NCBI GenBank assembly: GCA_963751425.1 | Contig: CAVVUF010000004.1 | Coordinates: forward strand, 572,981-636,980 | Length of the DNA: 64,000 bases | Origin: an uncultured Chloroflexia bacterium | GTDB taxonomy: Bacteria; Chloroflexota; Anaerolineae; Anaerolineales; UBA4823 | Direction of reading: 5' to 3' | In this document: positions 745-46,681 of the stretch, piece after piece | How positions within the stretch are numbered: position 1 is the first letter of the stretch | How the letters are laid out: the number at the start of each line of letters is the position of its first letter | Position numbers and translations under genes: made by a program | Notes under the pieces: generated by a model | Seen by the model: the letters and a program-made list of their open reading frames with translations, nothing else | What the model was told of the DNA's origin: nothing | Databases searched by the model: none

Positions 745-1244
745 CTATAGTAAACCTAAATCATGGTTGTCTGTAAAACATCCCTCATAGAATTCATTGA
801 AGGCTTTATCTATACTATGAGAAATAGTTTCATAACCTTCTATAAGAATAATTTGAAATCGGTTAATCAATTCATTTTTCCACAATGAGATTACAACATC
901 CATTTGTGAGTTGTGCTTTTTTTTGTCTCCCCTGAGCACCTTTTTCCAAAGGGCATTTTTATTTTCTGCGAGCGAAGGTTGCTCTTTGAGATAGGCAATG
1001 GCACTAAGAGCATATGCCTTATTTTTTTTAGAATTTGTATAATTGCCTTTTGGCACACCTAAGACGGAAGGCCTTCTTCACACAAACCTAGAAATGCACT
1101 CCTTGGACACCCTTTGTTCTTGCTAGTTGAGTTTTCGCCGAAAATGGAACGAACGGCATTCTCCCATGGCACCTTTGGAGAGGCTACATTCTTGCTTTGA
1201 TATAGTTTCACGGCTTCAAAAGCTGCCAGACCGTATTTGTCCAT
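745..1244 (-). pseudogene. conserved hypothetical protein split by a frameshift (ORFs 1059-1244 and 745-1056)
   Basis: Two adjacent same-strand ORFs are separated by 2 nt in different frames. The N-terminal part ends ...KGCPRSAFLGLCEEGLPS* and the next ORF resumes (V)PKGNYTNSKKNKAYALSAI..., which reads like one protein broken at about 1056-1061. The family is not confidently recognised. Confidence 0.4.
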
Positions 1245-1344
1245 AATATCTCATCTTTACTCCAAGCCGATATCTTTTGGTTTTATGGAATTTTATTGCC
1301 ACAATTTCAACTAAATTGGCTAATAAAAGATCGCGTCCAATGAA

Positions 1345-2091
1345 CTATCCAAACCCAAACAGCCCTCCCTGCACAATCGGCGTCATATACGCGCACTGCT
1401 CCAGCGTCAGGTACATCCCATCCACCTGGTTTGTATTCATCCGGTATTCTCTTGCATGCTCTTCTGACCAGAAGAAGATTGTATTTCTTCAGTAAGCATC
1501 AATGATTGTGCGCTCGGTGAAGTGCTCCCAATCCATATCTGGCATAAACACCCAGGGCGCGGCATCCGCCTCGCACACAGTGACATGCATGCTGCTGTCG
1601 ACCGTGATGTGCATCACCTGCCCGCAGTGGCTGCATTGGGTGTGCACTTCAACCATGAGATACTCGTTTCTAAGGTTCCCTTCCACGAAGGGCGCCGCAA
1701 TGGCATCCTCCGCTCAGGCACCGTACAAACGCTCTCCTGTGCTGAAATTCAAGCGGTGCGGCGTGGGTTCCACCGTCACCGGGTAAGCCCAAAAAACCGC
1801 CCCTTGTTCATCACGTGCCAGGAAAAACAGCTTCTTTTCCAGCTCATCCAGGATCGCCTCCACGCGTTCAAGGGATATCCCCAGCTTCTCCGAGATGAAA
1901 CCAGGAGATAAAGGCTTTCCAGTATTCATCAGCTCCCTCACCGCAAAATAGCGGATTTGGTGGTGCTGCTCTGTCATAAAGCGCAGCATCTCCTGGCTGT
2001 GTTCGGGGACATGGGTCAAGTCGCTTTTCCACTGCGCCTCTGAGATTTCGAGAATTTGCTTTCCTCTCCCAAGCAAAACTTTTCCATCCAT
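1345..2091 (-). CDS. MerB-like (alkylmercury lyase family) protein with an N-terminal HTH-like region and two in-frame UGA codons (candidate Sec residues)
   Basis: A single frame is open from ATG 2091 to TAG 1345 except for TGA at 1714-1716 and TGA at 1489-1491. RBS AAGGAGG lies 8 nt upstream of the ATG. The translation is ...STGERLYGA-U-AEDAIAAPF...CSHCGQVMHITV...TIIDAY-U-RNTIFFWSEEHAREY...LTLEQCAYMTPIVQGGLF. This parallels MerB RLYAW-C96-ALD99...SSHC...LTV...SF-C159-CHVHFFAS...AEDW...VSVHEAFGLGQEF (MerB sequence recalled from memory). The ORF track shows only the 125-aa and 65-aa pieces. Confidence 0.6.
1459..1476 (-). promoter_or_regulatory. hairpin downstream of the second in-frame UGA (SECIS-like candidate with a GGUC tetraloop)
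   Basis: On the coding strand the sequence is UUCUUCU-GGUC-AGAAGAG, a 7-bp stem including one G-U pair. The GGUC loop sits at +20 to +23 after the UGA at 1489-1491. As I recall it, the E. coli fdhF SECIS has GGUC at +19 to +22. Confidence 0.5.
1678..1692 (-). promoter_or_regulatory. hairpin downstream of the first in-frame UGA (SECIS-like candidate)
   Basis: On the coding strand the sequence is CCCUUC-GUG-GAAGGG, or a 5-bp stem with loop CGUGG. It starts 22 nt after the UGA at 1714-1716. Confidence 0.35.
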
Positions 2092-2325
2092 GAAAAACGC
2101 CTCCTTAATTGATTATCGAAAGGTTACAGAAAAGGAAAAAGGGTGGAATAATCAGGTTTTTCTAGTTTGCTCTGCCTTTTCCGTATTTTCATAGCTTTTC
2201 CGACCTCTATTATCGCACTTTTCCCTTTTTTTCGCCTCTTTTGCGTCATTTCGTGTGCGTCGTGTTCCAGCTTTCTTTCGCTTATTGCGTGTTCCAGGTC
2301 CCCACACCCATCACGCATCAGATGA

Positions 2326-2352
2326 TTCACAAATCCCCCTTAGTGCTATAAT
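2326..2352 (+). promoter_or_regulatory. putative sigma70-type promoter upstream of the C1 peptidase gene
   Basis: TTCACA (2326-2331), a 15-nt spacer, then TATAAT (2347-2352). The spacer is shorter than optimal. Confidence 0.3.
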
Positions 2353-2416
2353 AAATATCACAAAAACCGTCATATTCATCAAAAAAGGAGTATTACCATG
2401 CCTGCCAAAGGAAAGT

Positions 2417-3190
2417 ATGCTCGCAGAAATCTTGAACTGCATCCCTTCAAAGGAATCCGAAAAGGATTTGATGTTTGTTAATGCCGTTGGGGCGGGTTTA
2501 TTTGCCGCCGCGCCTCCGGTACCCCCCTCCAAAGATCTACGCGAAGACTGGTGGGAGATCGGTGACCAGGGCAGCACTGGCTCTTGCGTGGGCTGGGCGA
2601 CAGCCGATTCCGTGCTCCGCTGGCACTACGTCAAGACCGGGCGGGTTGCCCAGGACGAGCACATCTCTCCACGCTTTATCTGGATGGCAGCCAAGGAAAC
2701 GGATTTGTCCCGTTCTCAGCCCACCACCTTTATCGAGCTGGAAGGCACCAGCCTGAAGGCCGCCCTGGATATTGCCCGCAAATTCGGCGCGGTGCTCGAT
2801 ACGGTGCTGCCTTTCAAATCCGGGAAGCTCTACCCCGATGAAGCCAAAACCTTCTACGCATTGGCTGCCCAATTGAAACTCTCCAGCTATTTTAACCTCA
2901 GCACCAAGCTTTCTTCCTGGCGCGCCTGGTTAGCCACCAAAGGCCCCATCCTGACCCGCCTGAACGTGGATGCCACCTGGGACAACGCCGATGCCACCCA
3001 GGGCAACCTGGATGTTTACCTGCCCGAAACCATTCGCGGCGGCCATGCCGTTGCCCTGGTAGGGTATACCCCCGACCGCTTCATCGTCCGCAACAGTTGG
3101 GGCACTGGCTGGGGTGACCAAGGCTTTGCCTATGCCTCCCAGGCTTATGCCCAGGCAGCCTTCACCGAGGCGTATGGCGTAACGATCTAA
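2417..3190 (+). CDS. papain-like cysteine peptidase (C1 family)
   Basis: Catalytic motifs are present: DQGSTGSCVGWA (Cys), GGHAVALVGY (His) and NSWGTGWGDQGFAY (Asn/Trp). Start chosen at ATG 2417 (MLAEILNCIPS...). The track ORF opens at 2255. Confidence 0.85.
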   Translation: MLAEILNCIPSKESEKDLMFVNAVGAGLFAAAPPVPPSKDLREDWWEIGDQGSTGSCVGWATADSVLRWHYVKTGRVAQDEHISPRFIWMAAKETDLSRSQPTTFIELEGTSLKAALDIARKFGAVLDTVLPFKSGKLYPDEAKTFYALAAQLKLSSYFNLSTKLSSWRAWLATKGPILTRLNVDATWDNADATQGNLDVYLPETIRGGHAVALVGYTPDRFIVRNSWGTGWGDQGFAYASQAYAQAAFTEAYGVTI

Positions 3191-3338
3191 TTAGCTGACA
3201 ATCCAATTGCGCAGTGTGCGCCCACTGCTTTGAACAGCGGTGGGCGACGCTGCGCCAACTTAAAGATTTTATCAAGCTCATGTCATTTTCCTCCACTGCT
3301 TAATATTTCATCCGCTTTTTCCGTGTCCATTATTTCCC

Positions 3339-5900
3339 CTACTTTCTCCGCTTTCTTTGTGCCGAGAACATCCTCAACTTCGCGCCCTCAGCCAACAGAA
3401 TGCTTAGCAGACCGGCAGTCCCCACCAGCCCAATTTCCCAAAGGTGCAGGGGGCCAAAGCTGAATAAGCCTCTCAAGAAGGGTATGGAAATTGCTAATCC
3501 CAGGAAAAACAGCGTCCCTAAGGTCACCCACCACAAGGCCGGGTTTGGGATGCGCAGGGTCGACAAAATCGAGCTTTTCCAGGAGCGGTTGGTGAAGATC
3601 AGCCCCAGGTTACCGAGCACCAGCGTGGTGAAGCTCATCATGCGCGCCTCGCTCTCGCCCAGCCCCTTGGATAAGACGACCGCATACACTCCCAGCGTCA
3701 GCGCCAGCACCCCCAACCCCTGGATCAACCCGATCAAAACCATTTGCCTGCCAAATAGAGGCTCACTCAGCTTGCGCGGCGGACGATCCATGATATTCTT
3801 TTCCTCTTCCTCCATCTCAAACACAATCGAGCAGGCCGGGTCGATGATCAATTCCAGGAAGAGGATATGCACCGGCAGCAGCGCCAGCGGCCACTTCAGC
3901 AGCACCGGGATCAGCGACATACCCGCAATCGGGATGTGCACCGAGAAGATAAAAGTCATGGCTTTCTTCAAATTATCGTGGATGCGCCGCCCCACCCGCA
4001 CTGCCTGGACAATGGAAGCAAAGTTATCATCCAGCAGCACCATCGCCGCCGCTTCACGCGCCACATCGGTGCCTCGCCCGCCCATGGCGATCCCGATATG
4101 CGCGGCTTTCAGCGCCGGGGCATCGTTCACGCCATCCCCGGTCATTGCCACCACCTCGCCATTGGCTTTAAGCGCCTGCACCAGGCGCAGCTTTTGTTCG
4201 GGCACAGCCCGCGCAAAGATGCAGGTGGTCTTGATGCGCTCCTTCAGATCTGCGTCGCTCATCGCGTCCAGCTCTGGTCCGGTGATGATCTGATCTGCCG
4301 GTTTTAGCCCAATCTTCTCGGCGATATTGCGCGCCGTTCCAGGATAATCGCCGGTGATCATGATGACCCGAATGCCAGCCGTGTAGCAGTCTTTCACCGC
4401 CTCCGGCACGCCCGGTCGCACCGGGTCAGCCAGTCCGAGCATGCCCAGGAATTCAAAACTGAAATCGTGCTGGGATTCTGGCAGGTCTTCATGCCTGAAT
4501 GTAGCCCGCGCCACGCCGATCACCCGCAGCCCGTGGTTGGCCATCCGGTCGATCTGCTTTTCCATCATCCTACGCTGGCTCTCGTCGAAATGGCAGAGGT
4601 CAGCCACTGCTTCGGGTGCGCCCTTAGCGGCGATAACATACTCCTGCCCATCCGGCGACTGCCAGACCCGTGACATCGCCAGCATTTCAGGCGAAAGCGG
4701 GTACTCACGCAGCAGCTTCCAATCTTTATGAATATGCTCGGTGTTTGAGAGGGTCCTCCCGCCCAATTCTTTCATCGCCTTTTCCATCGGGTCGAAAGGG
4801 TCCGTTGGGCTGGCTAAAATACTGTATTCGACAACTTCATGCAGCGTCTCAGGCAGCGTTGTGGGCGTATGCTCTACATCGAACACCTCCCCGTTTACCG
4901 CTACTTTGGTAACGGTCATCCGGTTGAGCGTCAGCGTGCCGGTTTTATCCACGCATAAGACCGTTGCCGCTCCCAGCATCTCTACTGCCGGGACGCGCCG
5001 CGTCAGCACCTGCCGTTGAGAGATGCGCCAGGCGCCCAACGCCAGGAAGATTGTCAGCACCACTGGAAACTCTTCCGGCAGCGTTGCCATCGCCAGGGTG
5101 ATCCCTGCCAGGAACCCCTCCAGCCAGTTGCCGCGCGTCAAGCCGAAGACAACCACGACGATGATGCACACGCTCACACCCAGGATCGCGAAGTTGCGCA
5201 CAATTTTGCCGGTCTGCCGTTGTAGATCTGTGTCCTCCGGTTCCAGGATTTGCAGCGCCTTGCCGATCTTGCCGATCTCGGTGCGCGGCCCGGTGGCATG
5301 CACCCGGGCAATTCCCTGTCCCTTGACCACCAGGGTACCTGAATAGATGAACGGCAAATCATCACCGCCTGGACGCACCATCCCTTGCTGCCCATCCCAG
5401 GCATTTTTCCGCACCGGGATCGATTCCCCCGTCAGCAGGGACTCGTCGACACTCAGGTTGTTCCCGGTGAGTAATGTCGCATCTGCCGGAACGCGGTCCC
5501 CTTCTGCGATCAGCACAATATCATCCCTCACCACTTCCCGCCCTGCAATCCGTTTTTGAGCGCCATCTCGGATCACCAGTGCGCGTGGGCTGGAAAGATC
5601 GCGCAAAGCTTCTAAGGCGCGCTCTGTCTTCTGCTCCTGGTAGACCGTGATACCGATGATGACAAATACAAACCCCAGCAGCATCAGCGCCTCTTCTGGG
5701 TCGCCCAGCGCCAGGTATAGACCGCCGCATATGATCAGCAGCATGAACATTGGCTCGCGGATAATTTCCCACAAGAGATGGAAAAAGGAGCGCTTCTTCG
5801 AAGAAGGCAGCTCATTAAAGCCATCTTGCGCCAGGCGTTCGAAAGCTTCTGGCTCAGTCAAACCTTGAAGATTGGTTTCATCAAAATCTGCGGTCATCAT
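3339..5900 (-). CDS. cation-transporting P-type ATPase, P2 (Ca2+/PacL-like) type
   Basis: 853 aa. Motifs TGES, DKTGTLT, TGDGVNDAPALK and the TM4 PEEFP (PEGL-like) motif are present. There is no CPC motif or N-terminal heavy-metal domain. Confidence 0.95.
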   Translation of the reverse strand: MMTADFDETNLQGLTEPEAFERLAQDGFNELPSSKKRSFFHLLWEIIREPMFMLLIICGGLYLALGDPEEALMLLGFVFVIIGITVYQEQKTERALEALRDLSSPRALVIRDGAQKRIAGREVVRDDIVLIAEGDRVPADATLLTGNNLSVDESLLTGESIPVRKNAWDGQQGMVRPGGDDLPFIYSGTLVVKGQGIARVHATGPRTEIGKIGKALQILEPEDTDLQRQTGKIVRNFAILGVSVCIIVVVVFGLTRGNWLEGFLAGITLAMATLPEEFPVVLTIFLALGAWRISQRQVLTRRVPAVEMLGAATVLCVDKTGTLTLNRMTVTKVAVNGEVFDVEHTPTTLPETLHEVVEYSILASPTDPFDPMEKAMKELGGRTLSNTEHIHKDWKLLREYPLSPEMLAMSRVWQSPDGQEYVIAAKGAPEAVADLCHFDESQRRMMEKQIDRMANHGLRVIGVARATFRHEDLPESQHDFSFEFLGMLGLADPVRPGVPEAVKDCYTAGIRVIMITGDYPGTARNIAEKIGLKPADQIITGPELDAMSDADLKERIKTTCIFARAVPEQKLRLVQALKANGEVVAMTGDGVNDAPALKAAHIGIAMGGRGTDVAREAAAMVLLDDNFASIVQAVRVGRRIHDNLKKAMTFIFSVHIPIAGMSLIPVLLKWPLALLPVHILFLELIIDPACSIVFEMEEEEKNIMDRPPRKLSEPLFGRQMVLIGLIQGLGVLALTLGVYAVVLSKGLGESEARMMSFTTLVLGNLGLIFTNRSWKSSILSTLRIPNPALWWVTLGTLFFLGLAISIPFLRGLFSFGPLHLWEIGLVGTAGLLSILLAEGAKLRMFSAQRKRRK

Positions 5901-5938
5901 TCACAAAAACTCCTAAAAGACGATATTTTTAATTCGGA

Positions 5939-6370
5939 TCAATCAATGCAACCCATACAATGCCAGAAAAGATGGCTTGACCCCGCCGCACCTGGAATAT
6001 GCGCGCAAATCAAAACATTCCTTGCCGGTAAGCTCGCTGCTGCGAGCCAGCCCGCAGGCCAGGTTATTGACTTTTCGGCGGAGGGGTTATTGGAGAAGGA
6101 AAGTGTGATAGAATCTGGAAGATGCGTGGATATCCTCGCCAGGACATCCACAGCTTGTGTATTCCCAGAGCCTGTTTTCGCCAGGACGAAATCATCTTCA
6201 TGCTCATCGAAATGTGAATGTCCTGGAAATCCCCCTGATCCGATGTTGTGGTGGTCGTTTTCCCATAAGATGACAGGATCTGCCAGTACACACAGTGCAA
6301 TACTGCACAAGCATAGGCTGAGAATAACTATATTGCTTTTCAGCAGAAGGTTTTCCCGTTTCTTACCCAT
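5939..6370 (-). CDS. hypothetical secreted/membrane-anchored His/Asp-rich protein
   Basis: 143-aa ORF. The N-terminus has a hydrophobic segment (IVILSLCLCSIALCVLA) followed by DHHNIGSGGFPGHSHFDEHEDD. It lies directly upstream of, and co-directional with, the P-type ATPase. No family recognised. Confidence 0.3.
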   Translation of the reverse strand: MGKKRENLLLKSNIVILSLCLCSIALCVLADPVILWENDHHNIGSGGFPGHSHFDEHEDDFVLAKTGSGNTQAVDVLARISTHLPDSITLSFSNNPSAEKSITWPAGWLAAASLPARNVLICAHIPGAAGSSHLFWHCMGCID

Positions 6371-6436
6371 ATTTTACGAGTTTCATGCCCTGTTTAGATA
6401 AAGCGATAATAAGATCATCCACCGGTATGTTATCAT

Positions 6437-6472
6437 ATACAAACAATTGAACAAAGGTTCAATCGTTTGTAT
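6437..6472. promoter_or_regulatory. 16-bp inverted repeat (candidate operator)
   Basis: ATACAAACAATTGAAC-aaag-GTTCAATCGTTTGTAT, with 15 of 16 positions complementary. It lies in the AT-rich divergent intergenic region between 5939-6370 (-) and 6702-8231 (+). Confidence 0.4.
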
Positions 6473-6701
6473 TATAAATTATCTTAGAAATGATGTCAAT
6501 CATTTTTTCGCCTACCTCTTTTCATGTGCTTTACCTTAAAAAAATTCCCAAGACCGCCCACCTTTGTTCATCTTAGTTTTTTCTGGAATCAAGATTGCCC
6601 AAAAACCCTCCCCGTGCTAAACTTTACAAGTATCTATTCGAAAAATGGGCATTTCAAGAATTTTCGGATAGGTTCTCAATATCTGCTCCAGGAAGGGATC
6701 T

Positions 6702-8231
6702 ATGAACGTTATCATCATTGGCTCTGGTCTGGCTGGATTGACCGCTGGTGCTGCGCTTGCCAAAGCCGGGCACCAGGTTAACATCTTCGAACAATATTCT
6801 CAGACTGGCGGTGTCACCGCTCCCTATGAAAAAGAAGGCTTCCGCTGGGATTTAGGCCAGCTGCTCATTGAAGGCCTGGGACCAGATGAACCTCTCGGGG
6901 GTATCCTGGCAGAGCTGGGTGTGTTGGGCAAAATCCAGGTCAAGGTCGATGAGCGCCGCTATGTCTTTCCAGATTTCGAGATCAACAAGCCCAAGGATTA
7001 TGCCGGTTTACGCTGGCGCATCGACTACCTGAAGGCGCAGTTCCCCGAAGACGCGGCTGGTTTGGAGCGCTACTGGAAAGACTATCTGCGCTTCACAGGC
7101 CTCATGACCATCGGCCGCCGCCTGGAGCAGACTGCGGGCCTATCGGCATATTTTTTGAAAGCGCGCCTGTTCCTCAAGTTATTGCCTCTCCTCTCCAAGA
7201 AGGATTGGAGCGCAAAGCAGCTCATGGATGATTATTTTAAGTCTGAAAAGCTCAAATGCGTCTTCACTTCCATCCTGGCCGATTTTTTCACCCCTCCCAG
7301 CCAGTTCATTGGGTTGGGCGTTTTCGCCCTAAATCCCGAAGTCTCCTTTGATAAACGCATGCCCCGTCAATTGGCAAAGGATACCGAGCAGCTTTATTAT
7401 TACAGCATCCTGGGAGGTATCCATACCCTCGTCAAAGCCCTGGTTGAAACCATCCAGGCTCAAGGCGGTCAGATCTATACCAGTCGCCCGGTTGCCCAGA
7501 TTATCCTCCAGAATGGCCGCGCCGCAGAAGTCGTAGACCGGGATGGGAAACGGACCCCCGCCGATGTTGTCATCGCTTCAGGGGGAGCAAAGGAAACCTT
7601 CTTTGACCTGGTGGGTGAGGAAAACCTGCCAGCAGAATTTGCTGCCCAGCTCCAGACCATTCCCTTGATGGACTCGGTTTTCATGGTGCATCTCGGATTG
7701 GATTTCGATCCTGCTCCCTACGTCCGAGGTGTGTGTACTTATTATTACGGTACTTATGACATTGAAGGAGGCATTGTTGAGAACCGCCAGGGTCTCTATC
7801 ACGAAGGTCGCTCTGGCTTTGTCGTCCATGTCCCCACCAACCATTCTCCCTCCATGGCCCCCACCGGCCGGCATGCGATGACCATTTACACCATCTGTCC
7901 CGATCAGCTCCAACAAGGCACCTGGGCGGAACGGAAAGAAGAGTATGCGGACAAGCTGATCCAATATGCTGAAGCGCATATCCCCGGTCTGAGCCAGCAC
8001 ATCCGGGTCGCAGAGATCCTCACCCCCGAGGATTTCCGCCTGCGCACCCACACCAAACACCACGCCTTCGGAGGCATTGCCCCCGTGATGGGCTCCTGGC
8101 GTGTACCCCACCAGACCCCCATCCAAGGATTGTGGTTTGTAGGGGCTCAAAGTGAAAGTGGCGGCGGGGTAAATAATGTCATTCCCGGCGCCTACAAAAC
8201 CGCGCAGGCCATCCTCAAAGCTAACGCCTGA
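6702..8231 (+). CDS. phytoene desaturase (CrtI)-family NAD(P)/FAD-dependent oxidoreductase
   Basis: 509 aa. The N-terminal dinucleotide-binding fold is VIIIGSGLAGLTAGAALAKAGHQVNIFEQ. Overall length and pattern are CrtI-like. Confidence 0.8.
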   Translation: MNVIIIGSGLAGLTAGAALAKAGHQVNIFEQYSQTGGVTAPYEKEGFRWDLGQLLIEGLGPDEPLGGILAELGVLGKIQVKVDERRYVFPDFEINKPKDYAGLRWRIDYLKAQFPEDAAGLERYWKDYLRFTGLMTIGRRLEQTAGLSAYFLKARLFLKLLPLLSKKDWSAKQLMDDYFKSEKLKCVFTSILADFFTPPSQFIGLGVFALNPEVSFDKRMPRQLAKDTEQLYYYSILGGIHTLVKALVETIQAQGGQIYTSRPVAQIILQNGRAAEVVDRDGKRTPADVVIASGGAKETFFDLVGEENLPAEFAAQLQTIPLMDSVFMVHLGLDFDPAPYVRGVCTYYYGTYDIEGGIVENRQGLYHEGRSGFVVHVPTNHSPSMAPTGRHAMTIYTICPDQLQQGTWAERKEEYADKLIQYAEAHIPGLSQHIRVAEILTPEDFRLRTHTKHHAFGGIAPVMGSWRVPHQTPIQGLWFVGAQSESGGGVNNVIPGAYKTAQAILKANA

Positions 8232-9840
8232 TCAAAGACCCCTGGCAGCCATACGGGCAGGCAGCAATAGCAAGATCGCCCTTGACCAGCTCACCCTGGT
8301 AATTAGCCCCGTTTCCTCTCACCCGGTAGCCGCTCAAGACAAAAGGAGCCAGCCACTCTGCATCCAGCCACTCTCCGTTATACTTGCGTGCCAGGTGAAC
8401 ATGCGTCCCCGTTGAGCTGCCACCCTCACAGGATGGATGCCCGAGGGGGTCGTTCACCTTCACGTACGCACCCGGTTGAATAAGACCTTCATCCGCCAGG
8501 TGTAAATACACCAGCACCCAGCCGGTCTGCTCCAGCCCATCTCCATCCAGGTCCAAGGCTACTGCATTATTTTCAGCGCGTACCACTAACCCGGCTGCCG
8601 AAGCTGTCACCCACTGCTTTGATACTTCACAGCGTCCTTCGTTGTTCGCCGGCGCAAAGTCCAGGGCGCCGCGCGGGGTACCAAAATTCCAGGCCCAATG
8701 CGGCCCACTGGTGAAGCTCCAATATTCTCCGGGCGGAAAAGGCAGCTCCAAAACTGGTTGGGCCAGGTCATAAGGGATCAATGGTTCCACAGCCGCCCTG
8801 GCCCAAGGGTCACCGAACATGTCTTGATATAAGTTCATAAACCCATTGAGCCCCGTCAGCTTCTGCCACCAGGTGCCCTGGTTATAAAACATCGCAAAAA
8901 AGTTGTGCAAGCCTGCCGTGGCTGCATTCATAAACGGGTGCAGGCGCAGTGCTGATCCATTTGCAAACTTGATCAGAACATAATTTCCTTGTTTATAACC
9001 ATAATAAGCCAGGTTGAGCTGAGTTCCGGCAATCCTCAGCTCATCATACAACCCGACCTGCCCAGTCGCCATGAACCCAATAGGATAATCCACCTGGTCT
9101 GGATCCTTCGGCTGCCCGTACACCCAACCTGAGCGTTCCTCCAGAACTGCGAGCAGAAGCTTGGGATTCACGGAAAGCTCATTTGCCACGCGCTGGACAA
9201 TTCCGGCTCCACTGAGGATCTGACCATCGACATCCTCATGGTAAGTGCTCAGGTATCCGCCTGCCTGATTCACAAAAGCTTCTACGTCAAATCCAACCGC
9301 AGAAGGGGAATAAACAAGCTCGCTGTCAGGCAGCAGTGAATCTGGCGGCGTGGTGGCGCCGGTAATTTTTGGTACGACGAGTTGCAGGCCCCCTGGGAGA
9401 TAAGCCTCGGCTGAGTATGGCTGCTGGTAAGTCAGATCCTCCAACCGGAGCTCAAACCGGTCTGCCAGGCGCTGCAGAGTCTCTCCAGGTCGGGTTACAT
9501 AAACGACAAATCCGGCTGGCGGTACCAGGGTAATTGCTGGGATTGTAGGAAAAGGCGTGGGAGAGGCGGCTTCAACCTGCGGAACAAGTGTTACCTGCGG
9601 AGCAGGTGTTGTAGATAAGGCTTCTTCAGGATTTTGTAAAATCGGAACGGACGAAAGCGTCTGGGTGGCAGCCTCGGTGGGCATAACAACCGCCTGGATC
9701 GGCGTTGTCATGGCTTGCATGGTTTCTAACAGCTCGCTTGCTTGGGCAGGTTGGTCAGGAGGAGTTGTGCTGCGGCAAGCCATTATCGCCACGCAAACAG
9801 CAACAATGATCCCGCCCAGGTGGCTCGCGGGCTTGGTCAT
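8221..9840 (-). CDS. LysM domain-containing M23 family metallopeptidase
   Basis: N-terminal signal/TM segment. LysM-like YVTRPGETLQRLADRFELRLEDL. C-terminal M23 motif GTHVHLARKYNGEW. Confidence 0.8.
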   Translation of the reverse strand: MTKPASHLGGIIVAVCVAIMACRSTTPPDQPAQASELLETMQAMTTPIQAVVMPTEAATQTLSSVPILQNPEEALSTTPAPQVTLVPQVEAASPTPFPTIPAITLVPPAGFVVYVTRPGETLQRLADRFELRLEDLTYQQPYSAEAYLPGGLQLVVPKITGATTPPDSLLPDSELVYSPSAVGFDVEAFVNQAGGYLSTYHEDVDGQILSGAGIVQRVANELSVNPKLLLAVLEERSGWVYGQPKDPDQVDYPIGFMATGQVGLYDELRIAGTQLNLAYYGYKQGNYVLIKFANGSALRLHPFMNAATAGLHNFFAMFYNQGTWWQKLTGLNGFMNLYQDMFGDPWARAAVEPLIPYDLAQPVLELPFPPGEYWSFTSGPHWAWNFGTPRGALDFAPANNEGRCEVSKQWVTASAAGLVVRAENNAVALDLDGDGLEQTGWVLVYLHLADEGLIQPGAYVKVNDPLGHPSCEGGSSTGTHVHLARKYNGEWLDAEWLAPFVLSGYRVRGNGANYQGELVKGDLAIAACPYGCQGSLIRR

Positions 9841-11324
9841 ACCCCTGTCCTGCCGGTCAGCTTTCGAAAACTATCCTTTAACTGATCATAAAGGGTGGTA
9901 AAAACCTGGTAATGGGAGGCATAAACCCCACTCGCATCAAGGTTGGGGAAGGTATCCACGGTCGGCTCCAACCAGGCGTTCAAGCCAGCAAATCCAGCTT
10001 GATCACCCACTGCCAGTGCAGCCAGGAATGCGCCTCCCAGTGCTGTTCCTCCGCTGTTTGGCCGCCAGCGGATCGGAACCTCTAGCACATCAGCAAAAAT
10101 TTGCCGCCACAGCGGGCTGCGTGCCCCACCGTTGATCGCGATAATTTCCTGGATCGGACTTCCCATCTCGGAAAAAATCCCTGCCATCTGCCTGAACGCT
10201 AAAGCCACCCCTTCCAACACAGCCCGGTAGAGATGCCCCCGCCGGTGCCGTGAAGACAACCCGATAAAGACTCCCCTGGCGTGTGGATCCCAGATGGGGG
10301 TCCGCTCACCCATCAAGTAAGGAAGAAAGATTAAGCCCTCCGATCCTGCAGAGACCTGGGCAGCTTCCTTCTCCAGAGTAACTAAAAACTCAGGACTCTC
10401 GTCACCGAGCATTTCTACAAACCAGCGCACAGACCCTCCAGCCATCACTCCCCCCAGGCTCAACCTTTCACCAGTCACATGCACGGTATTAAACACGCGC
10501 ACGTCGCTGCGCTCGGGTGCTGGAACTAATAAATTCCCCGCAGTTCCCAACATCACGGCTCCTACGTTTTTTTTCATCACCCCTGCCCCAAGGCAGGCAC
10601 AGGCATAATCGCCCCCACCGCAAACCACCGCGGTTCCCACCGGGAGATGGGTGGCTTCCGCAGCCTGGGCGGTTACCTTCCCGACCACTTGCCATGCGTC
10701 CTGGATCAGAGGCAGCTTTTCCATATCCAGATCCATTACCGTGCAAGCTTCCTCATCCCACTCTCGCCGATACAGGTTGTATACCGGGCTGCACAAACCT
10801 GCCTGGCTGTGGTCAACCACGGCCTCCCCCGTTAGCTGCAAGATCACATAGCTGGTCGCCTGGAGGATCTTCCAGGTTTGCCGATAACCCTCTGCCTCAT
10901 TCTGGCGGAACCACAACCACTTCACACCCCCATAGTAGCTGTCCAAAATATTTCCGCTGATCTCTTCAGCCTTCTTCTGACCCATCCGCTCAGCCAGCCA
11001 ATCCGCCTGCGGCGCAGCGCGGCGGTCGAGCCATAAGATTGCCGGGCGAAGCGGATTTCCCTTTCGATCGACCGGCACGCAGGAAGGTGCCTGCCCACTG
11101 ACACAAACTGCTGACACCTTACCATCTGGAGAAAACGTCACCACCTCCCGGCAAATCCTTTGAACAGCCTCCCACCAATCTAAAGGGTCTTGCTCAGCCC
11201 AACCTGCTTTAGGATATACAGCCTCATATGCCGCGCTGCTGGAGCTGAGCCGCGTCCCGTCCTCCTGATATAATTCCGCCTTTGCAGACGATGTGCCGAT
11301 ATCAAGCACAAGATAGGTGTGCAC
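9837..11324 (-). CDS. FGGY-family carbohydrate kinase (xylulokinase/glycerol-kinase-like)
   Basis: 495 aa. LVLDIGTSSAKA phosphate-1 motif and C-terminal INGGARSPLWRQIFADVL. GTG start. 4-nt overlap with the downstream gene. Confidence 0.9.
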   Translation of the reverse strand: MHTYLVLDIGTSSAKAELYQEDGTRLSSSSAAYEAVYPKAGWAEQDPLDWWEAVQRICREVVTFSPDGKVSAVCVSGQAPSCVPVDRKGNPLRPAILWLDRRAAPQADWLAERMGQKKAEEISGNILDSYYGGVKWLWFRQNEAEGYRQTWKILQATSYVILQLTGEAVVDHSQAGLCSPVYNLYRREWDEEACTVMDLDMEKLPLIQDAWQVVGKVTAQAAEATHLPVGTAVVCGGGDYACACLGAGVMKKNVGAVMLGTAGNLLVPAPERSDVRVFNTVHVTGERLSLGGVMAGGSVRWFVEMLGDESPEFLVTLEKEAAQVSAGSEGLIFLPYLMGERTPIWDPHARGVFIGLSSRHRRGHLYRAVLEGVALAFRQMAGIFSEMGSPIQEIIAINGGARSPLWRQIFADVLEVPIRWRPNSGGTALGGAFLAALAVGDQAGFAGLNAWLEPTVDTFPNLDASGVYASHYQVFTTLYDQLKDSFRKLTGRTGV

Positions 11325-11333
11325 TACGTTAAC

Positions 11334-12398
11334 TCATTCCCCCAGCCTGTTGCTTGAGAAAAACATCTCCCATGGAATCTCTACCTTTTCGCCTTCATGA
11401 ATGATCCGATATAGATGCTCCATTAAGGGAAACCCTCCCGCTCGGATCACGCCTCTTGCCTCCAATTTCGGCAGCGCTCTTCCGATGCGTGTGATAATCT
11501 CCACACTTTCCAGGGTTTCCCCCGCCATCATCTCGCGTGCCTCGGGATAGGGGTATTCCATCCCCAATAAGCGTCCCATTCGCACCGTACGCCCGCCAAA
11601 GACCGTTACATATAGGTCCCCTGCCCCTGGCAGCCAGGCGATATTGTCAATACCTCCGCCTAAAAGCTCTAAGAAACGCCGCATCTCCAGGCAGCTCTGC
11701 GCAAATAAAGCCGCCTGTGGATTATACATATGAGCCAACCCATCCACCCCGGCCTTTTCACCCATGCCAACCGCCAGACCTACCCCCAAGGCATAAGCAT
11801 TTTTCAATGCTGCACATACCTCTACCCCAACCATATCTGACGAAGTCCAAATATGATAATAATCTGTACGGAAAGTCTCTCGCAGGCGGTCGAGCACATT
11901 TTCATCTCGCCCGCAAAAAACGACCCCGGTCTGCCTGCGAGCAGCCAGCTCGTGAGCAATGCATGGCCCGCCGATTGCATTTAAGCTGATTCTGCCTCTT
12001 AAATGAGAAGGGATTTGTGCGTCAATGAACTCCGGTAGAATCTGAAAATTTCCATTCTCATCATCTACCAGGCCCTTGGTCACCGCGATCACAGGAACTT
12101 CAGGCTTCAAAAAGGGCCCAACCGTCTCAATGAACCACTGCACCCCAAAGCTGCTCACTCCTGAGGCCAGAAACTCAGCTTCCTCCAGGGCCTCCTGCAT
12201 TTGGGTATGCTCGAACAGTTGAACTTGCTCAGGAATCTTCCGGCTCAAGCGAGGGTGCAGACCGGTATTGCGCATACTGGCAACCGGCTCATTATCCAGC
12301 AGTGTACCCACCAATCTGACAGAATGTCCATTATCCACCAGGGGCCAGCATAGGGCTGTCCCCATCATTCCAGCCCCAATAATTGTAATGACAGACAT
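11334..12398 (-). CDS. NAD(P)H-dependent glycerol-3-phosphate dehydrogenase (GpsA family)-like
   Basis: 354 aa. IIGAGMMGTALCWPL Rossmann motif, VTKGL and AALKNAYALGVGLAVGMG, matching GpsA-family patterns. Confidence 0.75.
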   Translation of the reverse strand: MSVITIIGAGMMGTALCWPLVDNGHSVRLVGTLLDNEPVASMRNTGLHPRLSRKIPEQVQLFEHTQMQEALEEAEFLASGVSSFGVQWFIETVGPFLKPEVPVIAVTKGLVDDENGNFQILPEFIDAQIPSHLRGRISLNAIGGPCIAHELAARRQTGVVFCGRDENVLDRLRETFRTDYYHIWTSSDMVGVEVCAALKNAYALGVGLAVGMGEKAGVDGLAHMYNPQAALFAQSCLEMRRFLELLGGGIDNIAWLPGAGDLYVTVFGGRTVRMGRLLGMEYPYPEAREMMAGETLESVEIITRIGRALPKLEARGVIRAGGFPLMEHLYRIIHEGEKVEIPWEMFFSSNRLGE

Positions 12399-30668: not shown

Positions 30669-31139
30669 ATGATCGAGCTCAATATTCCCGGTCGGAAAAG
30701 CTTGCAGTTGGAACACCTTGTTTGTGATGTGAATGGCACTTTAGCAACTGATGGCCAGCTCATAGAAGGCCTCGTGCGCCTCTTATCGAGCCTGCGCGAC
30801 CGGTTAACCTTACATCTGCTGACCGCCGATACGCATGGACGTCAAGAGATCATCGATCACCAACTGAACCTCCACGCAGTCCACATCCAACCGGGCGATG
30901 AAGCTGTCCAGAAAGCGAACTACATCCGCGAGCTGGGTGCAGAGCAGGTTGTTGCCATTGGCCAGGGGGCCAACGATGCCGACATGCTTAAGACAGCCGG
31001 TTTAGGAATTTGTGTATTATCCGTCGAAGGGACTGCCGTGGAAACACTTCTATCGGCAGATTTGGTCGTCAGCAACATTTTTGATGCTCTTCACCTCCTA
31101 GAAAATCCAATCAGAATCGTGGCTAGTTTACGAAAATGA
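30669..31139 (+). CDS. stand-alone HAD-superfamily protein resembling the P-type ATPase phosphorylation domain (COG4087-like)
   Basis: CDVNGTLA (DxxGT motif), GQGANDADML (GDGxND-like), about 156 aa. Start placed at ATG 30669 (MIELNIPG). Confidence 0.75.
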   Translation: MIELNIPGRKSLQLEHLVCDVNGTLATDGQLIEGLVRLLSSLRDRLTLHLLTADTHGRQEIIDHQLNLHAVHIQPGDEAVQKANYIRELGAEQVVAIGQGANDADMLKTAGLGICVLSVEGTAVETLLSADLVVSNIFDALHLLENPIRIVASLRK

Positions 31140-32329
31140 ATCTTCCCCAATCAGAGCAATTTCCGCACGATCCAGATCACCTGCCCCCAGCTCGCCGGAG
31201 GCGCGCCCGCCGGCTGTTAGCACCCATCGAAGCCGACGAGCGCGCCGCCTTTATTGATGAGCTGGCTCATATAACCTCTCCCACCTTCGATTTTTTCCTA
31301 TTCTCTCTCCTATCTGGTTTGGTCCTGGCGGTGGGTTTACTCCTGGATACCCCCGCATTGATCCTGCTCGGTGTGCTGCTGGCGCCTTTCATGGCTCCGG
31401 TCATCGGTATTTCTTTTAGTACGGTCACTGGATCCATTCGTACATTTGTCATCAATTTCACCGGCCTGCTAATTGGCAGCCTGATGGTCTTTGCTGCTGG
31501 ATTTCTGGTTGGATTGATCACGTTGGTATGGAAACCCGGCGAGCTGAGCCAGGTTCACCTTCACGCCCAGGTTTCCTGGCCTAACTTTCTCGTCCTGGCA
31601 GCCGGAGCGATCGTGACTACCGCGGCACTGATTCGCCGACAGCGCAACGCTTCGGTGTTCAGCGTTGCCTTGGCTTACGAGCTCTATATTCCAGTCGCGG
31701 TAGCAGGTTTTGGCCTCAGCAGTGGCATCCCCAATTTGTTCCCTGATGGCCTGGTTATTTTTGCTCTCCACCTTGCCTGGGCTGTTTTATTTGGCACCCT
31801 TACATTTTTTATCTTGGGTTTACGCCCCCTGACTCTTTTTGGCTATACCCTGGGCGCCGCAGCGGCCCTGATCGGGATTATCATCCTGATCGGTATCAGT
31901 GGAGCAGGTGCGGTCCTGGGTGCCAAGGTCGGTTTACCCACCCCGATTCCCAGCGCCACACCTACCTTTACCCCCATTCCGCCTACGCCGACACACACCC
32001 TCACGCCGGTGCCCCCCACGCAAACGCCTACCCCAACGACCACCCCCACCCTCACCCCGTCGCCTTCGCCTACGCTGAGTCCAACCCCCACACCAGTCTA
32101 CGCCTATATCAATGCTTCTTCTGGAAATCCCCCGGGCGCGAAAATCCGTACGGAACCTGGTGGAAAAGTCATCCGCAGCTATCTAAACAATACCCTGGTC
32201 ATTGTCTATCCAGATACCATCGAGCAGGATGGCTTGATCTGGGCGCATATTCTGGTTGTAGAAGATAATACCGATGGTTGGATCCTGCAATCTCTCTTGC
32301 TGGCGGCTACTCCTGCGCCGGTGTGGTGA
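31136..32329 (+). CDS. DUF389-like membrane protein with a PT-rich linker and a C-terminal SH3b-like domain
   Basis: ATGA start/stop overlap with the HAD gene. The DUF389-like N-terminus is DERAAFIDELAHITSPTFDFFLFSLLSGLVLAVG...LLAPFMAPVIG. A P/T linker lies at about nt 31930-32095. The C-terminus is YAYINASSGNPPGAKIRTEPGGKVIRSYL...DGWILQSLL. Confidence 0.7.
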   Translation: MNLPQSEQFPHDPDHLPPARRRRARRLLAPIEADERAAFIDELAHITSPTFDFFLFSLLSGLVLAVGLLLDTPALILLGVLLAPFMAPVIGISFSTVTGSIRTFVINFTGLLIGSLMVFAAGFLVGLITLVWKPGELSQVHLHAQVSWPNFLVLAAGAIVTTAALIRRQRNASVFSVALAYELYIPVAVAGFGLSSGIPNLFPDGLVIFALHLAWAVLFGTLTFFILGLRPLTLFGYTLGAAAALIGIIILIGISGAGAVLGAKVGLPTPIPSATPTFTPIPPTPTHTLTPVPPTQTPTPTTTPTLTPSPSPTLSPTPTPVYAYINASSGNPPGAKIRTEPGGKVIRSYLNNTLVIVYPDTIEQDGLIWAHILVVEDNTDGWILQSLLLAATPAPVW

Positions 32330-32732
32330 AATTTTGTAGATCCGATGGTCCAAAAGACCCCGGCAGCAAGCCTGCTACGGTACTTTCCAGCGTTAACTGA
32401 CCATCCGCATTTACGATCAACACCACCGTATCCAGGCCAAATTCCGCCAGTACTTGCCGGCAAGAACCGCATGGAGTGCCTCCATTCTCTGTCGCCACTG
32501 CAATGGCTGCAAACGCCATTTCCCCCTCTGAGACAGCCTTGTATACAGCCACGCGCTCTGCACACATACTTGTTGGATAGGCTGCATTCTCTACATTTAC
32601 TCCCAGGAATACTTTGCCCGACCTGGTCAACAAAGCCGCCCCCACCCGGTAATGGGAATAAGGTGCGTAGGCGCGTTGTTTTACAGATACAGCTTGCTCA
32701 ATAAGCTCCCGGCGTTGTTTAATTGTGATCAT
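32307..32732 (-). CDS. cdd: cytidine deaminase
   Basis: 141 aa with zinc motifs CAERVAVYKA and PCGSCRQVLAEF. Confidence 0.9.
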   Translation of the reverse strand: MITIKQRRELIEQAVSVKQRAYAPYSHYRVGAALLTRSGKVFLGVNVENAAYPTSMCAERVAVYKAVSEGEMAFAAIAVATENGGTPCGSCRQVLAEFGLDTVVLIVNADGQLTLESTVAGLLPGSFGPSDLQNFTTPAQE

Positions 32733-45291: not shown

Positions 45292-46437
45292 ACGTTGCGG
45301 CCCTCCCCGCCGATCTTGACGCGCGGGTCAACAATGGCATAAACGAAATCTAACACGAAAACCGTGATGGCCAGAAGGTAGGAGAAAACCACCGTGGTGC
45401 CCACGATGACGGACGTTTCATACAGATTGACCGCCGTGAAGGTAATGCGGCCGATCCCCGGCCAGTTGAACACCGTTTCAAAGATCGGCGCCCCCGTCCA
45501 CGATACGATCAAAAGAAAAGCAAAGGAGGTAATAATATTGGGCAGTGTCGGGCGCAGCACATAGCGCCGCTCAACATCCTTATCACTCAAGCCCTTGGCT
45601 TTGGCCATCTCGACATAATCTTCGCTGGAATAGATCAAGAAATAGGTCCGGTAGGCGTAGACGGCGCCAAAAAAACCAGCGATCGTAAATGCAAACACAG
45701 GCAGGATCATATGCTGCAACAGGCTGAGGGCATATAAAATCGGTTCTTCGGGCGGCGGGGCAGAGACCATCCCGCCATACGGCAGCCACCCCAGCCAGGA
45801 GGCAAAGATCAAGATCAGGAACAGGCTGTAAAACCAGGCCGGGATGGCGGAAGTCGGCGACATGCCGATGATAAATTTATCCAGCTTGCTCCCATACTTG
45901 CGAGAGAGGCTCAAGCCGACTCCCACGGAAAGAAAGAAGTTAATCAGCGAGGCACTGCCTGTCAGCAGCAGGGTGGCCGGCAGGCGCTCGAGGATAATAT
46001 TTTTCACCTGCCGCGAGCCCGCATCGCTGGACATATAAGACGCCCTCCCCAGGTTGAGCGTCAGGGCATTCTTCAAGAAGCCAAAGCTGCGCACCACAAA
46101 CGGCCTGTCCAGCCCGCACCCGGTGTTCTTCCAGAGCGATCATTTCCTCCACGCGGCGGGTGCGCGTCGCCACATCCAGGGCTTTTAGCGCCGGGTCGGT
46201 CAGCACCCGCTGCGAGATCGTCTCGCGGATATCGCCGCGGCGGATCTCGTCCACGTAACCGCCCATGTTGGCGATCAGCACGGTCAGGTACACGCCGACC
46301 GCCACGGTCATGGCCAGCAGCAAGATGCGCACCACCATGTATTTGGCCACACGCACCACAGAGCTGGAACTTTGCCTGGCTTTCTTGACCTCTTCTACTG
46401 GAACATTACCTGGCACACTCAGGTTTGCTTCAGCCAT
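45288..46437 (-). pseudogene. peptide-type ABC permease (OppB-like), system 2, with one frameshift
   Basis: ORFs 45940-46437 and 45288-46097 overlap in different frames. The frame changes at about 46100-46135 (...MIALEEH / GLDRPFVVRSFGFLKNAL...). Contains DYVEMAKAKGLSDKDVERRYVLRPTLP. Confidence 0.8.
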
Positions 46438-46498
46438 AGGCTTGCCCTTTCAAAAAAGCTTCTATCTTCGAAAACATATGGAAATACGACTGCCAGTT

Positions 46499-46546
46499 GT
46501 CACCCTGAGCGAAGCCAATGCATCCATCCGCTTCACTCAGCATGCC
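46499..46546. repeat. short palindromic element related to the 52401-53345 repeat family
   Basis: GTCACCCTGAGCGAAGC...GCTTCACTCAGCATGCC, with imperfect inverted termini sharing the CTGAGC/GCTCAG-type core of the larger repeats. Confidence 0.4.
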
Positions 46547-46628
46547 AAAAGCCTGGATCTTCAAGAAAACCTGTTTTGAAACCGCGTATTATATTTTCTA
46601 AAAGAGCCAATTGCACGCTCAAGCAGTG

Positions 46629-46660
46629 CCCGATGGGAGCAGTGGCCTGCTCCCATCGGG
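46629..46660 (-). promoter_or_regulatory. perfect 14-bp intercistronic hairpin after the solute-binding protein gene (system 2)
   Basis: CCCGATGGGAGCAG-tggc-CTGCTCCCATCGGG. No U-tract follows on the coding (minus) strand, so it is more likely an mRNA-stabilising or processing structure than a full terminator. Confidence 0.55.
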
Positions 46661-46681
46661 ATGAAAAAAAGAAGTTACAAA

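Follow-up and report, generated by a model that had tools for sequence, protein, structure and literature searches.

The gene and its reading frame

The stretch of DNA analysed here (the window, 64,000 nucleotides; positions 572,981 to 636,980 of contig CAVVUF010000004.1, assembly GCA_963751425.1) comes from an uncultured bacterium of the Chloroflexota. On its minus strand, at positions 1345..2091, lies a MerB-like gene of 248 codons followed by TAG, with two in-frame UGA codons that are candidate codons for selenocysteine (Sec, U). The start codon ATG (2091-2089) is preceded, with an 8-nt spacer, by the Shine-Dalgarno sequence AAGGAGG (2100..2106), which was read directly from the sequence; the true stop TAG occupies 1345..1347. 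TGA at 1716-1714 and TGA at 1491-1489 are the only stops within the frame. The list of open reading frames (ORFs) shows it as two pieces of 125 and 65 amino acids (aa), with nine codons between them and 47 codons past the second TGA.

UGA-1 (1714..1716, minus strand) is codon 126 and stands in the context RLYGA-U-AED, while UGA-2 (1489..1491, minus strand) is codon 201 in the context DAY-U-RNTIFFWSEEH. The candidate Sec residues, U126 and U201, are found at the positions of Cys96 and Cys159 of MerB. The codon GAT (1705..1707, minus strand), three residues past U126, encodes Asp129 at the position of the MerB proton donor Asp99, and the motif C153-x-H155-C156 (TGC AGC CAC TGC) is encoded at 1624..1635 of the same strand. 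A first-pass annotation of this DNA had described the frame, its ribosome-binding site, both TGA codons and the two ORF pieces; every coordinate was confirmed on the sequence, and translation gave the contexts that it had listed as RLYGA-U-AED and DAY-U-RNTIFFWS.

Membership in the MerB family

For profile searches, the U residues of the 248-aa product were written as C. The product matched the Pfam MerB family (PF03243; gathering score 27) with 57.5 bits, its residues 106-233 aligning with profile positions 2-117 of 126, which bears out the MerB assignment of the first-pass annotation. The NCBIfam models of characterised MerB, NF009710 and NF033555, were not passed (58.5 versus 193 bits and 49.5 versus 200 bits, respectively). 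The same was true of the NCBIfam model of SaoL, NF040728, with 50.3 versus 140 bits over residues 34-173 only.

In a profile search of the sequences of the Protein Data Bank (PDB), MerB2 of Bacillus megaterium (PDB 5C17) was the only solved structure reached, and E. coli MerB was not. The equivalence with MerB residues was obtained via MerB2, the residues being counted in the alignment. U126, D129, C153 and U201 of the window protein align with Cys102, Ser105, Cys123 and Cys165 of MerB2 (5c17), and these four residues show a constant offset of +6 from Cys96, Asp99, Cys117 and Cys159 of MerB. Cys96, Asp99 and Cys159 are essential in MerB and Cys117 is structural; MerB2 is a natural D99S variant of MerB (PMC10114901). 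All three positions of the catalytic triad Cys96-Asp99-Cys159 are filled in the window protein (U126, D129, U201), if Sec is counted as an equivalent of Cys. The claim that the UGA codons fall on the columns of both catalytic cysteines and that the aspartate is kept has thus stood up: U126 and U201 lie on the Hg-binding cysteines of MerB2 and D129 on the position of Asp99, and the profile does not place the UGA codons away from the Cys columns.

D129 is invariant in the family alignments A1 and A4. C153, which aligns with the structural Cys117 of MerB, is invariant as well, and near-invariance is seen for H155 in A1 and for C156 in A4. No counterpart of H155 and C156 in MerB is known to us. 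The C-x-H-C motif might serve as another site at which metal is handled or passed on.

The structure was modelled for the database homologue P0001 (85% identical, with W at both sites) together with 29 relatives. The AlphaFold model had a mean pLDDT (predicted local distance difference test) of 91.9 and a pTM (predicted template-modelling score) of 0.88. When this model was compared with the PDB by Foldseek, the top 11 matches were all MerB or MerB2 (E 2e-11 to 4e-7), and nothing significant was found beyond them. By homology with this model, the window protein, a member of the MerB family by its Pfam match, has a predicted MerB fold.

It resembles MerB (EC 4.99.1.2, plasmid R831b, PDB 3F0O/3F0P) and MerB2 in having the same fold (target template-modelling score, TM, 0.60-0.81), and by alignment it possesses the equivalents of the triad and of the structural Cys117 of MerB. 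It differs from both in its low identity (~16-22%), in the predicted replacement of both thiols by selenols and in scores far below the NCBIfam equivalog cut-offs. Unlike MerB, it lacks an equivalent of Cys160, carries the extra conserved CxHC motif and has no mer genes nearby.

Conservation of the two UGA codons

The window gene was compared with homologues from 82 distinct loci, giving a set of 83 sequences from several phyla with 47-93% protein identity. TGA was present at both sites in 81 of the 83, a pattern that goes far past what chance would give. Site 1 carried TGA in 81 sequences, with one TGT and one TCC as the exceptions; at site 2, TGA was found in 82 sequences and TGC in the remaining one. 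Of the 80 loci parsed, 78 have the two sites precisely 75 codons apart, and the frames of the compared loci contain neither further stops nor frameshifts. The invariant motif F206-F207-(W208)-S209-E210-x-H212 (FFWSE.H), the most conserved of the whole protein, is located 3' of the second UGA.

Among genomes taken one per GTDB species, at least 437 matches were confirmed as relatives. The carriers belong mostly to the Anaerolineae and other Chloroflexota, and further carriers were found in Acidobacteriota, Thermodesulfobacteriota, Myxococcota, Zixibacteria, Ktedonobacteraceae and some Clostridia. On these sequence matches, the two-UGA MerB-like family is widespread among soil bacteria.

The protein databases contain the family in a mutilated form. 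A word-indexed search of 5.8 billion proteins yielded 95 relatives in three length classes. Proteins of ~250 aa come from metagenome contigs of ~1 kb and show Trp at both sites; in the DNA of one of them (L002) both Trp codons are TGA, which are stops under the standard code. In proteins of ~200 aa, site 1 is Cys and the sequence breaks off immediately before site 2; one of these (L001), when read past its end, gives ...TIIDAY*RNSVFFWSEEHAREYR... The third class (~136-160 aa) ends exactly before site 1. When 1.84 billion cluster representatives were searched exhaustively with a profile, 833 hits were obtained at E <= 0.001, 421 of them at E <= 1e-10. The exact 125-aa product of the window gene, looked up by itself, had no match on record.

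All 243 database proteins that were retrieved were aligned to the family profile and classified by their residues at the two sites. The largest class (143/243) ended exactly before site 1. Another 38 were miscalls with Trp at both sites, which are attributed to genetic code 4 because short metagenome contigs are called with this code. Cys at site 1 was found in 15 proteins, all ending exactly before site 2. Two proteins had Ser at site 1 and Cys at site 2, and seven were full-length with E, G or S at site 1 and no Cys at site 2. The remaining 38 were fragments or had ambiguous endings, and no full-length protein had Cys at both sites (0/243).

Two members, P0009 (L004:261-1013) and P0101, are the only ones with Cys at site 2, and both have Ser at site 1. 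In a distant branch (P0100, P0102, P0103, P0108, P0160, P0161 and P0176), the catalytic residues of both sites are lost, and some of its members have FFCSEEH instead of FFWSEEH. The proteins of this branch may be non-catalytic paralogues.

RNA hairpins downstream of the UGA codons

Synonymous-codon entropy was computed per column for 162 gap-free codon columns in 81 sequences. Synonymous choice was near saturation almost throughout, with the exception of two short blocks, one after each UGA. The first block covers codons +7 to +12 past UGA-1 (ACG CCC TTC GTG CAA GGG), with GTG and GGG each in 77/81 sequences. The second covers codons +5 to +10 past UGA-2 (TTC TTC TGG TCA GAA GAA), and its first four codons were each present in 81/81; in the set of 83, TTC TTC TGG TCA was found in every sequence and the following GAA in 82. 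The Ser of this block is always encoded by TCA although six Ser codons exist, whereas the Ser five codons earlier uses all six.

RNAalifold, run blind on two 66-nt alignments, one per UGA, predicted only two structures, CCCUU-[CGUGC]-AAGGG and UUCUUCU-[GGUC]-AGAAGAA, the latter with a 7-bp stem. Hairpin 1, the candidate selenocysteine insertion sequence (SECIS) element of UGA-1, is found at 1678..1692 of the window (minus strand) as CCCUU(C)-GUG-(G)AAGGG; the family consensus is CCCUU-[CGUGC]-AAGGG. Hairpin 2, the candidate SECIS of UGA-2, is found at 1459..1476 (minus strand) as UUCUUCU-[GGUC]-AGAAGAG and is encoded by the invariant FFWSEE.

For hairpin 1 with two flanking pairs, 92.4% of cells were paired, versus 31-59% when the partner was slid by 1-3 columns. 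Three of its seven pairs showed compensatory changes on both sides (C-G to U-A twice and G-C to C-G once), and its covariation score was reached by none of 500 shuffles. In hairpin 2, 99.2% of cells were paired. An alternative hairpin at site 1, GCGGAGG...CCUUCGU, which was the single-sequence structure of minimum free energy (MFE), was rejected, as its pairs are broken by variable synonymous positions (GCG/GCA, GAG/GAA). Single-sequence folding at site 2 did not recover the conserved hairpin 2. Two short RNA hairpins, one per UGA, are under selection at the nucleotide level.

The bacterial SECIS model describes an apical loop of 3-9 nt, a stem of 4-16 bp, a G at loop position 1 or 2, a loop placed 16-37 nt past UGA and an MFE of -7.5 kcal/mol or lower (PMC13188914). 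Hairpin 1 has a stem of 5-7 bp, the loop CGUGC and a spacing of 26 nt; hairpin 2 has a stem of 7 bp, the loop GGUC and a spacing of 19 nt. Both agree with the model in loop, stem, G and spacing. Hairpin 1 alone folds at -10.0 kcal/mol, within the energy limit of the model. The E. coli SECIS is a 17-nt minimal stem-loop starting 11 nt past UGA, with essential G23 and U24 (PMC8659212); with the U of UGA taken as nt 1, the GGUC loop of hairpin 2 occupies nt 23-26, one nucleotide off the position of G23/U24. With good support, each UGA is inferred to be recoded by SelB and Sec-tRNA(Sec) through its own in-frame candidate SECIS.

Lineages with Cys or Ser in place of Sec provide a natural control. 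TGT or TGC was found at site 1 in eight genes representing six independent lineages, and TGC occurs at site 2 in L004, which has the Ser codon TCC at site 1. Provided that hairpin 1 acts for UGA-1, lineages in which UGA-1 has become a Cys codon would be expected to lose this hairpin. One Cys clade, L086/L093, is clearly old, since 52% of synonymous sites differ between its members. Its hairpin 1 has decayed, with amino-acid changes too, and its hairpin 2, still preceded by UGA, is intact. In L004, with Ser at site 1, hairpin 1 has likewise decayed.

Interpretation of the two UGA codons

The gene probably encodes a true two-Sec selenoprotein with the MerB fold, decoded via two in-frame SECIS elements. 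In the product, Sec very probably takes the place of both metal-binding cysteines. The double-selenoprotein reading proposed in the first-pass annotation is thus favoured by the MerB match and fold, the conserved UGA codons, the homologues with Cys and the SECIS-like hairpins. In this scheme, SelB and Sec-tRNA(Sec) would decode UGA-1 via hairpin 1 and UGA-2 via hairpin 2. The result would be a stand-alone MerB-fold enzyme of 248 residues with U126 and U201 at the metal-binding positions and D129 retained.

Several observations weigh against this interpretation. Hairpin 2 shows no covariation because it never varies, so its support comes from the frozen synonymous sites; the minimal hairpin 2, folded by itself, reaches no more than -5.4 kcal/mol, short of the limit of -7.5 kcal/mol. 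The 15-nt core of hairpin 1, CCC TTC GTG CAA GGG, is intact in five of the six Cys lineages (L001, L085, L088, L090, L091, L092), and its retention without UGA-1 means that the constraint is not strictly tied to the adjacent UGA. This retention can be explained by recent conversion of Sec to Cys, since the five lineages are isolated tips. In the pair L085/L091, no more than 31% of synonymous sites differ, so that an unchanged hairpin 1 would have a chance of ~11% under neutrality. Hairpin 1 may have an extra role, such as helping to recruit SelB for the second UGA. The control provided by the Cys lineages agrees with the SECIS interpretation but does not settle it.

Further points of this kind concern decoding and function. 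Neither tRNA-Sec nor a sel gene was detected in the 64-kb window by ARAGORN, Rfam and a Pfam search of 30 ORFs including all those of the size of SelA, SelB or SelD, and ARAGORN found no tRNA-Sec in 1.3 Mb of homologue flanks. There is no requirement for sel genes to be linked, so these searches are uninformative, and Sec use by this genome is a matter of inference. Chloroflexota and Acidobacteriota are documented as Sec-using phyla (PMC13582414; PMC13326102; PMC5389517), and tRNA-Sec has been reported in Chloroflexi (PMC5389517). Two recodings would multiply inefficiency, the efficiency at a single site in E. coli being 30-40% (PMC4513850). Furthermore, neither MerA nor another conserved partner or metal-acceptor gene is linked to the MerB-like gene at the 82 loci and in the window. 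A bis-selenolate would hold Hg(II) extremely tightly, which, with no acceptor linked, argues against a mercury lyase capable of turnover.

One explanation that does without Sec is that of a pseudogene, or of a genuine 125-residue protein; the UGA codons would then be real stops, followed by the decaying remains of a frame. Gene callers that apply the standard code do give only the 125-aa piece, 143 database proteins end at site 1 and the 64-kb window shows no Sec machinery. However, the same two TGA codons are found in 81 of the 83 sequences across phyla with the frame otherwise undamaged, and the most conserved motif of the protein sits past the second TGA. Residues 1-125 would miss nearly all of the Pfam MerB match (106-233), and the full-length model of the homologue P0001 is a confident MerB fold. 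The comparative data refute the pseudogene in practice, and its probability is minimal; a sequencing error is likewise rejected. The first-pass annotation had likewise argued against a pseudogene, naming homologues that naturally end at the first UGA as contrary evidence; the homologues were found to continue past it. Reading of the UGA codons without Sec is a little less improbable but still very unlikely; it would involve a code in which UGA means Trp or Gly, an opal suppressor or a selC* tRNA-Cys delivered by a SelB-like factor. In its favour, 38 family members are translated with Trp at both sites in public databases, Sec-like tRNA-Cys with a UCA anticodon and possibly suppressing allo-tRNAs occur in some anaerobes and Acidobacteria (PMC5389517), and no Sec machinery was found in the window. 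The code of the window is nevertheless standard: 43 non-overlapping ORFs of >=150 aa, which make 83% of the window coding, end in TGA (21), TAA (12) or TAG (10). Normal stops are thus most often TGA, which excludes codes 4 and 25. Trp elsewhere in the MerB-like gene is encoded by TGG, and the Trp residues of the database entries are code-4 miscalls of TGA, as seen in the DNA of L002. Both sites are catalytic Cys positions that exchange with Cys codons, not with Trp or Gly codons. The selC* tRNA-Cys is known from Firmicutes, Thermodesulfobacteria, Nitrospirae and Proteobacteria, not from Chloroflexi, and is always accompanied by a complete Sec system (PMC5389517). Moreover, hairpins at a fixed, SECIS-like spacing favour delivery of the SelB type.

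If the two-Sec protein is accepted, its function has to be considered separately, and the chances that it is an organometallic lyase, by analogy with MerB, are about even. By homology with MerB (PMC10114901), and with equally balanced confidence, the two selenolates would bind the metal of an organometallic R-M+ and weaken the C-M bond; D129 would then protonate the carbon and release R-H, the metal being left on the bis-selenolate site. Mercury is not necessarily the metal of the substrate; another organometal, a reaction with only one turnover, sequestration or a redox role would be possible. A double-Sec MerB fold without lyase activity, which acts as a diselenide/selenol redox pair or in high-affinity binding and sequestration of soft metals, is rather unlikely but has an appreciable chance. 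It would fit the absence of the gene from mer operons and of a conserved partner such as MerA, scores far below the cut-offs for characterised MerB in NCBIfam (58.5 vs 193; 49.5 vs 200) and a binding of Hg(II) so tight that turnover is hard to picture. It would also fit the Ser/Cys variants and catalytically dead paralogues of the wider family and the caution of Haft and Gwadz on the substrate of SaoL (10.1101/2022.07.06.499078). In contrast, the invariant proton-donor Asp three residues past site 1 is expected for protonolysis, not for binding or redox function, the whole catalytic core fold of MerB is retained in the model of P0001, and selenium-based mimics of MerB cleave Hg-C bonds (PMC10114901). 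A more specific proposal would make the family an enzyme of low-oxygen soils and sediments that demethylates or dealkylates methylmercury or other organometal(loid)s independently of mer; it is doubtful, with a small chance of being correct. In such an enzyme, the two selenolates would give affinity and nucleophilicity for trace levels of substrate.

Genomic surroundings

The MerB-like gene is flanked by a papain-type C1 peptidase gene (2255-3190, plus strand), followed by a P-type cation ATPase gene (3339-5900, minus strand), both assigned by Pfam, and by a DUF6979 gene on its other side. The first-pass annotation had named a C1 peptidase and a Ca-type ATPase as neighbours, which Pfam matches with a C1 peptidase and a P-type cation ATPase, and had stated that the gene is not part of a mer operon. 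Indeed, no merA, merR, merT or merP was found near the window gene. All-against-all clustering of 1,324 flank ORFs from the 82 loci and the window revealed no conserved neighbour, and no family was common to more than 12 loci. A mer operon or a system of the SAO type was rejected as there is no conserved neighbourhood, individual Sao profiles not having been run against the neighbours.

A divergent regulator gene of the MarR family stands beside the MerB-like gene in the P0039/P0041 clade, which has Cys at site 1, on all three contigs (L086:5472-5885, L087:995-1408, L093:65-517). This is the only recurrent neighbour seen; it may hint at how the gene is regulated, but does not occur in the window.

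The GC content is 0.31-0.43 over positions 1-1350, versus 0.50-0.62 over most of the next 4.5 kb, so that the AT-rich border mentioned in the first-pass annotation has been measured. The closest relative, L005, has 93% protein identity and is collinear with the window over 1343-12300 at 87-91% nucleotide identity. Since the collinearity with L005 ends at the stop of the gene, the AT-rich DNA below 1343, which was compared with L005:10749 onward and lacks a counterpart there, is lineage-specific, which suggests an insertion or replacement in this lineage at the 1343 boundary.

Within this AT-rich DNA, the DUF6979 gene (745-1244, minus strand) is split: profile positions 1-59 are found in 1059-1244 and positions 64-127 in 745-1056, in a different frame, with TAG at 1059-1061 and an A8 homopolymer run nearby. 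It was rejected as a second case of recoding, since it shows TAG and a frameshift, not TGA, and is a frameshifted pseudogene or an assembly indel. All in-frame TGA junctions of the window were scanned, and no other convincing gene with in-frame TGA was found. The TGA junctions in unassigned DNA at 31136-32704 and 46259-48076 were rejected as selenoprotein genes because they look non-coding or antisense. The ORF of 471 aa at 46661-48076 (plus strand) has no Pfam match, is rich in Arg, Gly and His and resembles an antisense shadow; the real gene there may be on the other strand or unannotated.

Relation to known selenoproteins

The first-pass annotation knew of no established selenoprotein family among MerB proteins; this was mistaken, as SaoL is a MerB-like selenoprotein (NCBIfam NF040728; Haft and Gwadz, bioRxiv 10.1101/2022.07.06.499078; J Bacteriol 2023). 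Because of this precedent, the concept of a MerB selenoprotein is not new. SaoL (~213 aa) contains a single Sec, which follows Cys in a CU dipeptide at the position of Cys159, and it still has a Cys where MerB has Cys96. It is the marker of the SAO locus of anaerobes, a conserved set of nine genes that includes transporters (10.1101/2022.07.06.499078). According to the same authors, Sec at the metal site makes the assignment of a MerB-type substrate uncertain for SaoL (10.1101/2022.07.06.499078).

The window protein and SaoL both belong to Pfam MerB (PF03243), with Sec at the Cys159 position and Asp at the Asp99 position. Both are routinely cut short in databases, occur in environmental, largely anaerobic bacteria and are not found in mer operons. 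In contrast to SaoL, the window protein has Sec at both positions, a length of 248 aa and no conserved neighbours. The residue before the second Sec, which is Cys in the CU dipeptide of SaoL, is Tyr in the window and [YF] in the family. Where SaoL has Cys at the Cys96 position, site 1 of the two-Sec family is UGA in 81/83 sequences.

Listed selenoproteins that have two Sec residues or are related to metals include the metal-binding double selenoprotein MbdU, a further metal-binding protein, with UxxU, that is described as 'putative mercuric reductase', and HgcA (PMC13188914). This group provides a precedent for two Sec residues per bacterial polypeptide and shows that Sec is recurrent as a ligand of soft metals. 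Unlike the window protein, its members have unrelated folds, and their Sec residues are usually within one short motif. The two of the window protein are 75 residues apart, each with its own hairpin, and would meet only in the folded active site.

In the table of prokaryotic selenoprotein families of a 2026 review (PMC13188914), SaoL (CU, one Sec) is the sole MerB-like entry. NCBIfam release 20 contains no model for the two-Sec family, and MerB is not mentioned in the main texts of BSepDB and deep-Sep, to which this statement is confined. MerB-like selenoproteins are thus already known, and the two-Sec family is new, an earlier mention being not fully excluded.

Significance

If the interpretation is correct, the family would have a MerB-type active site built wholly of selenium ligands, whereas in SaoL only one Cys is replaced. 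A bis-selenolate combined with Asp would be a distinctive catalytic arrangement for carbon-metal chemistry. This large family (833 cluster representatives) has been hidden by mis-annotation, its proteins being cut at UGA or given a spurious Trp, and would be overlooked or misinterpreted wherever merB diversity or selenoproteomes are surveyed. The gene also offers a natural case of two separate in-frame candidate bacterial SECIS elements within one short gene, frozen across phyla. This pair of hairpins would be useful for studying SelB recognition and the decoding of multiple Sec codons.

For the bacteria of anoxic soils, the family is a testable candidate for the transformation of organometals. 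The genetic basis of mer-independent methylmercury degradation in such environments has been called unresolved (PMC10114901). Should the demethylase proposal hold, surveys of merB would have missed the enzyme, as its gene is always cut short or mistranslated, and the family would supply an enzyme for the long-observed biotic demethylation that is not explained by mer.

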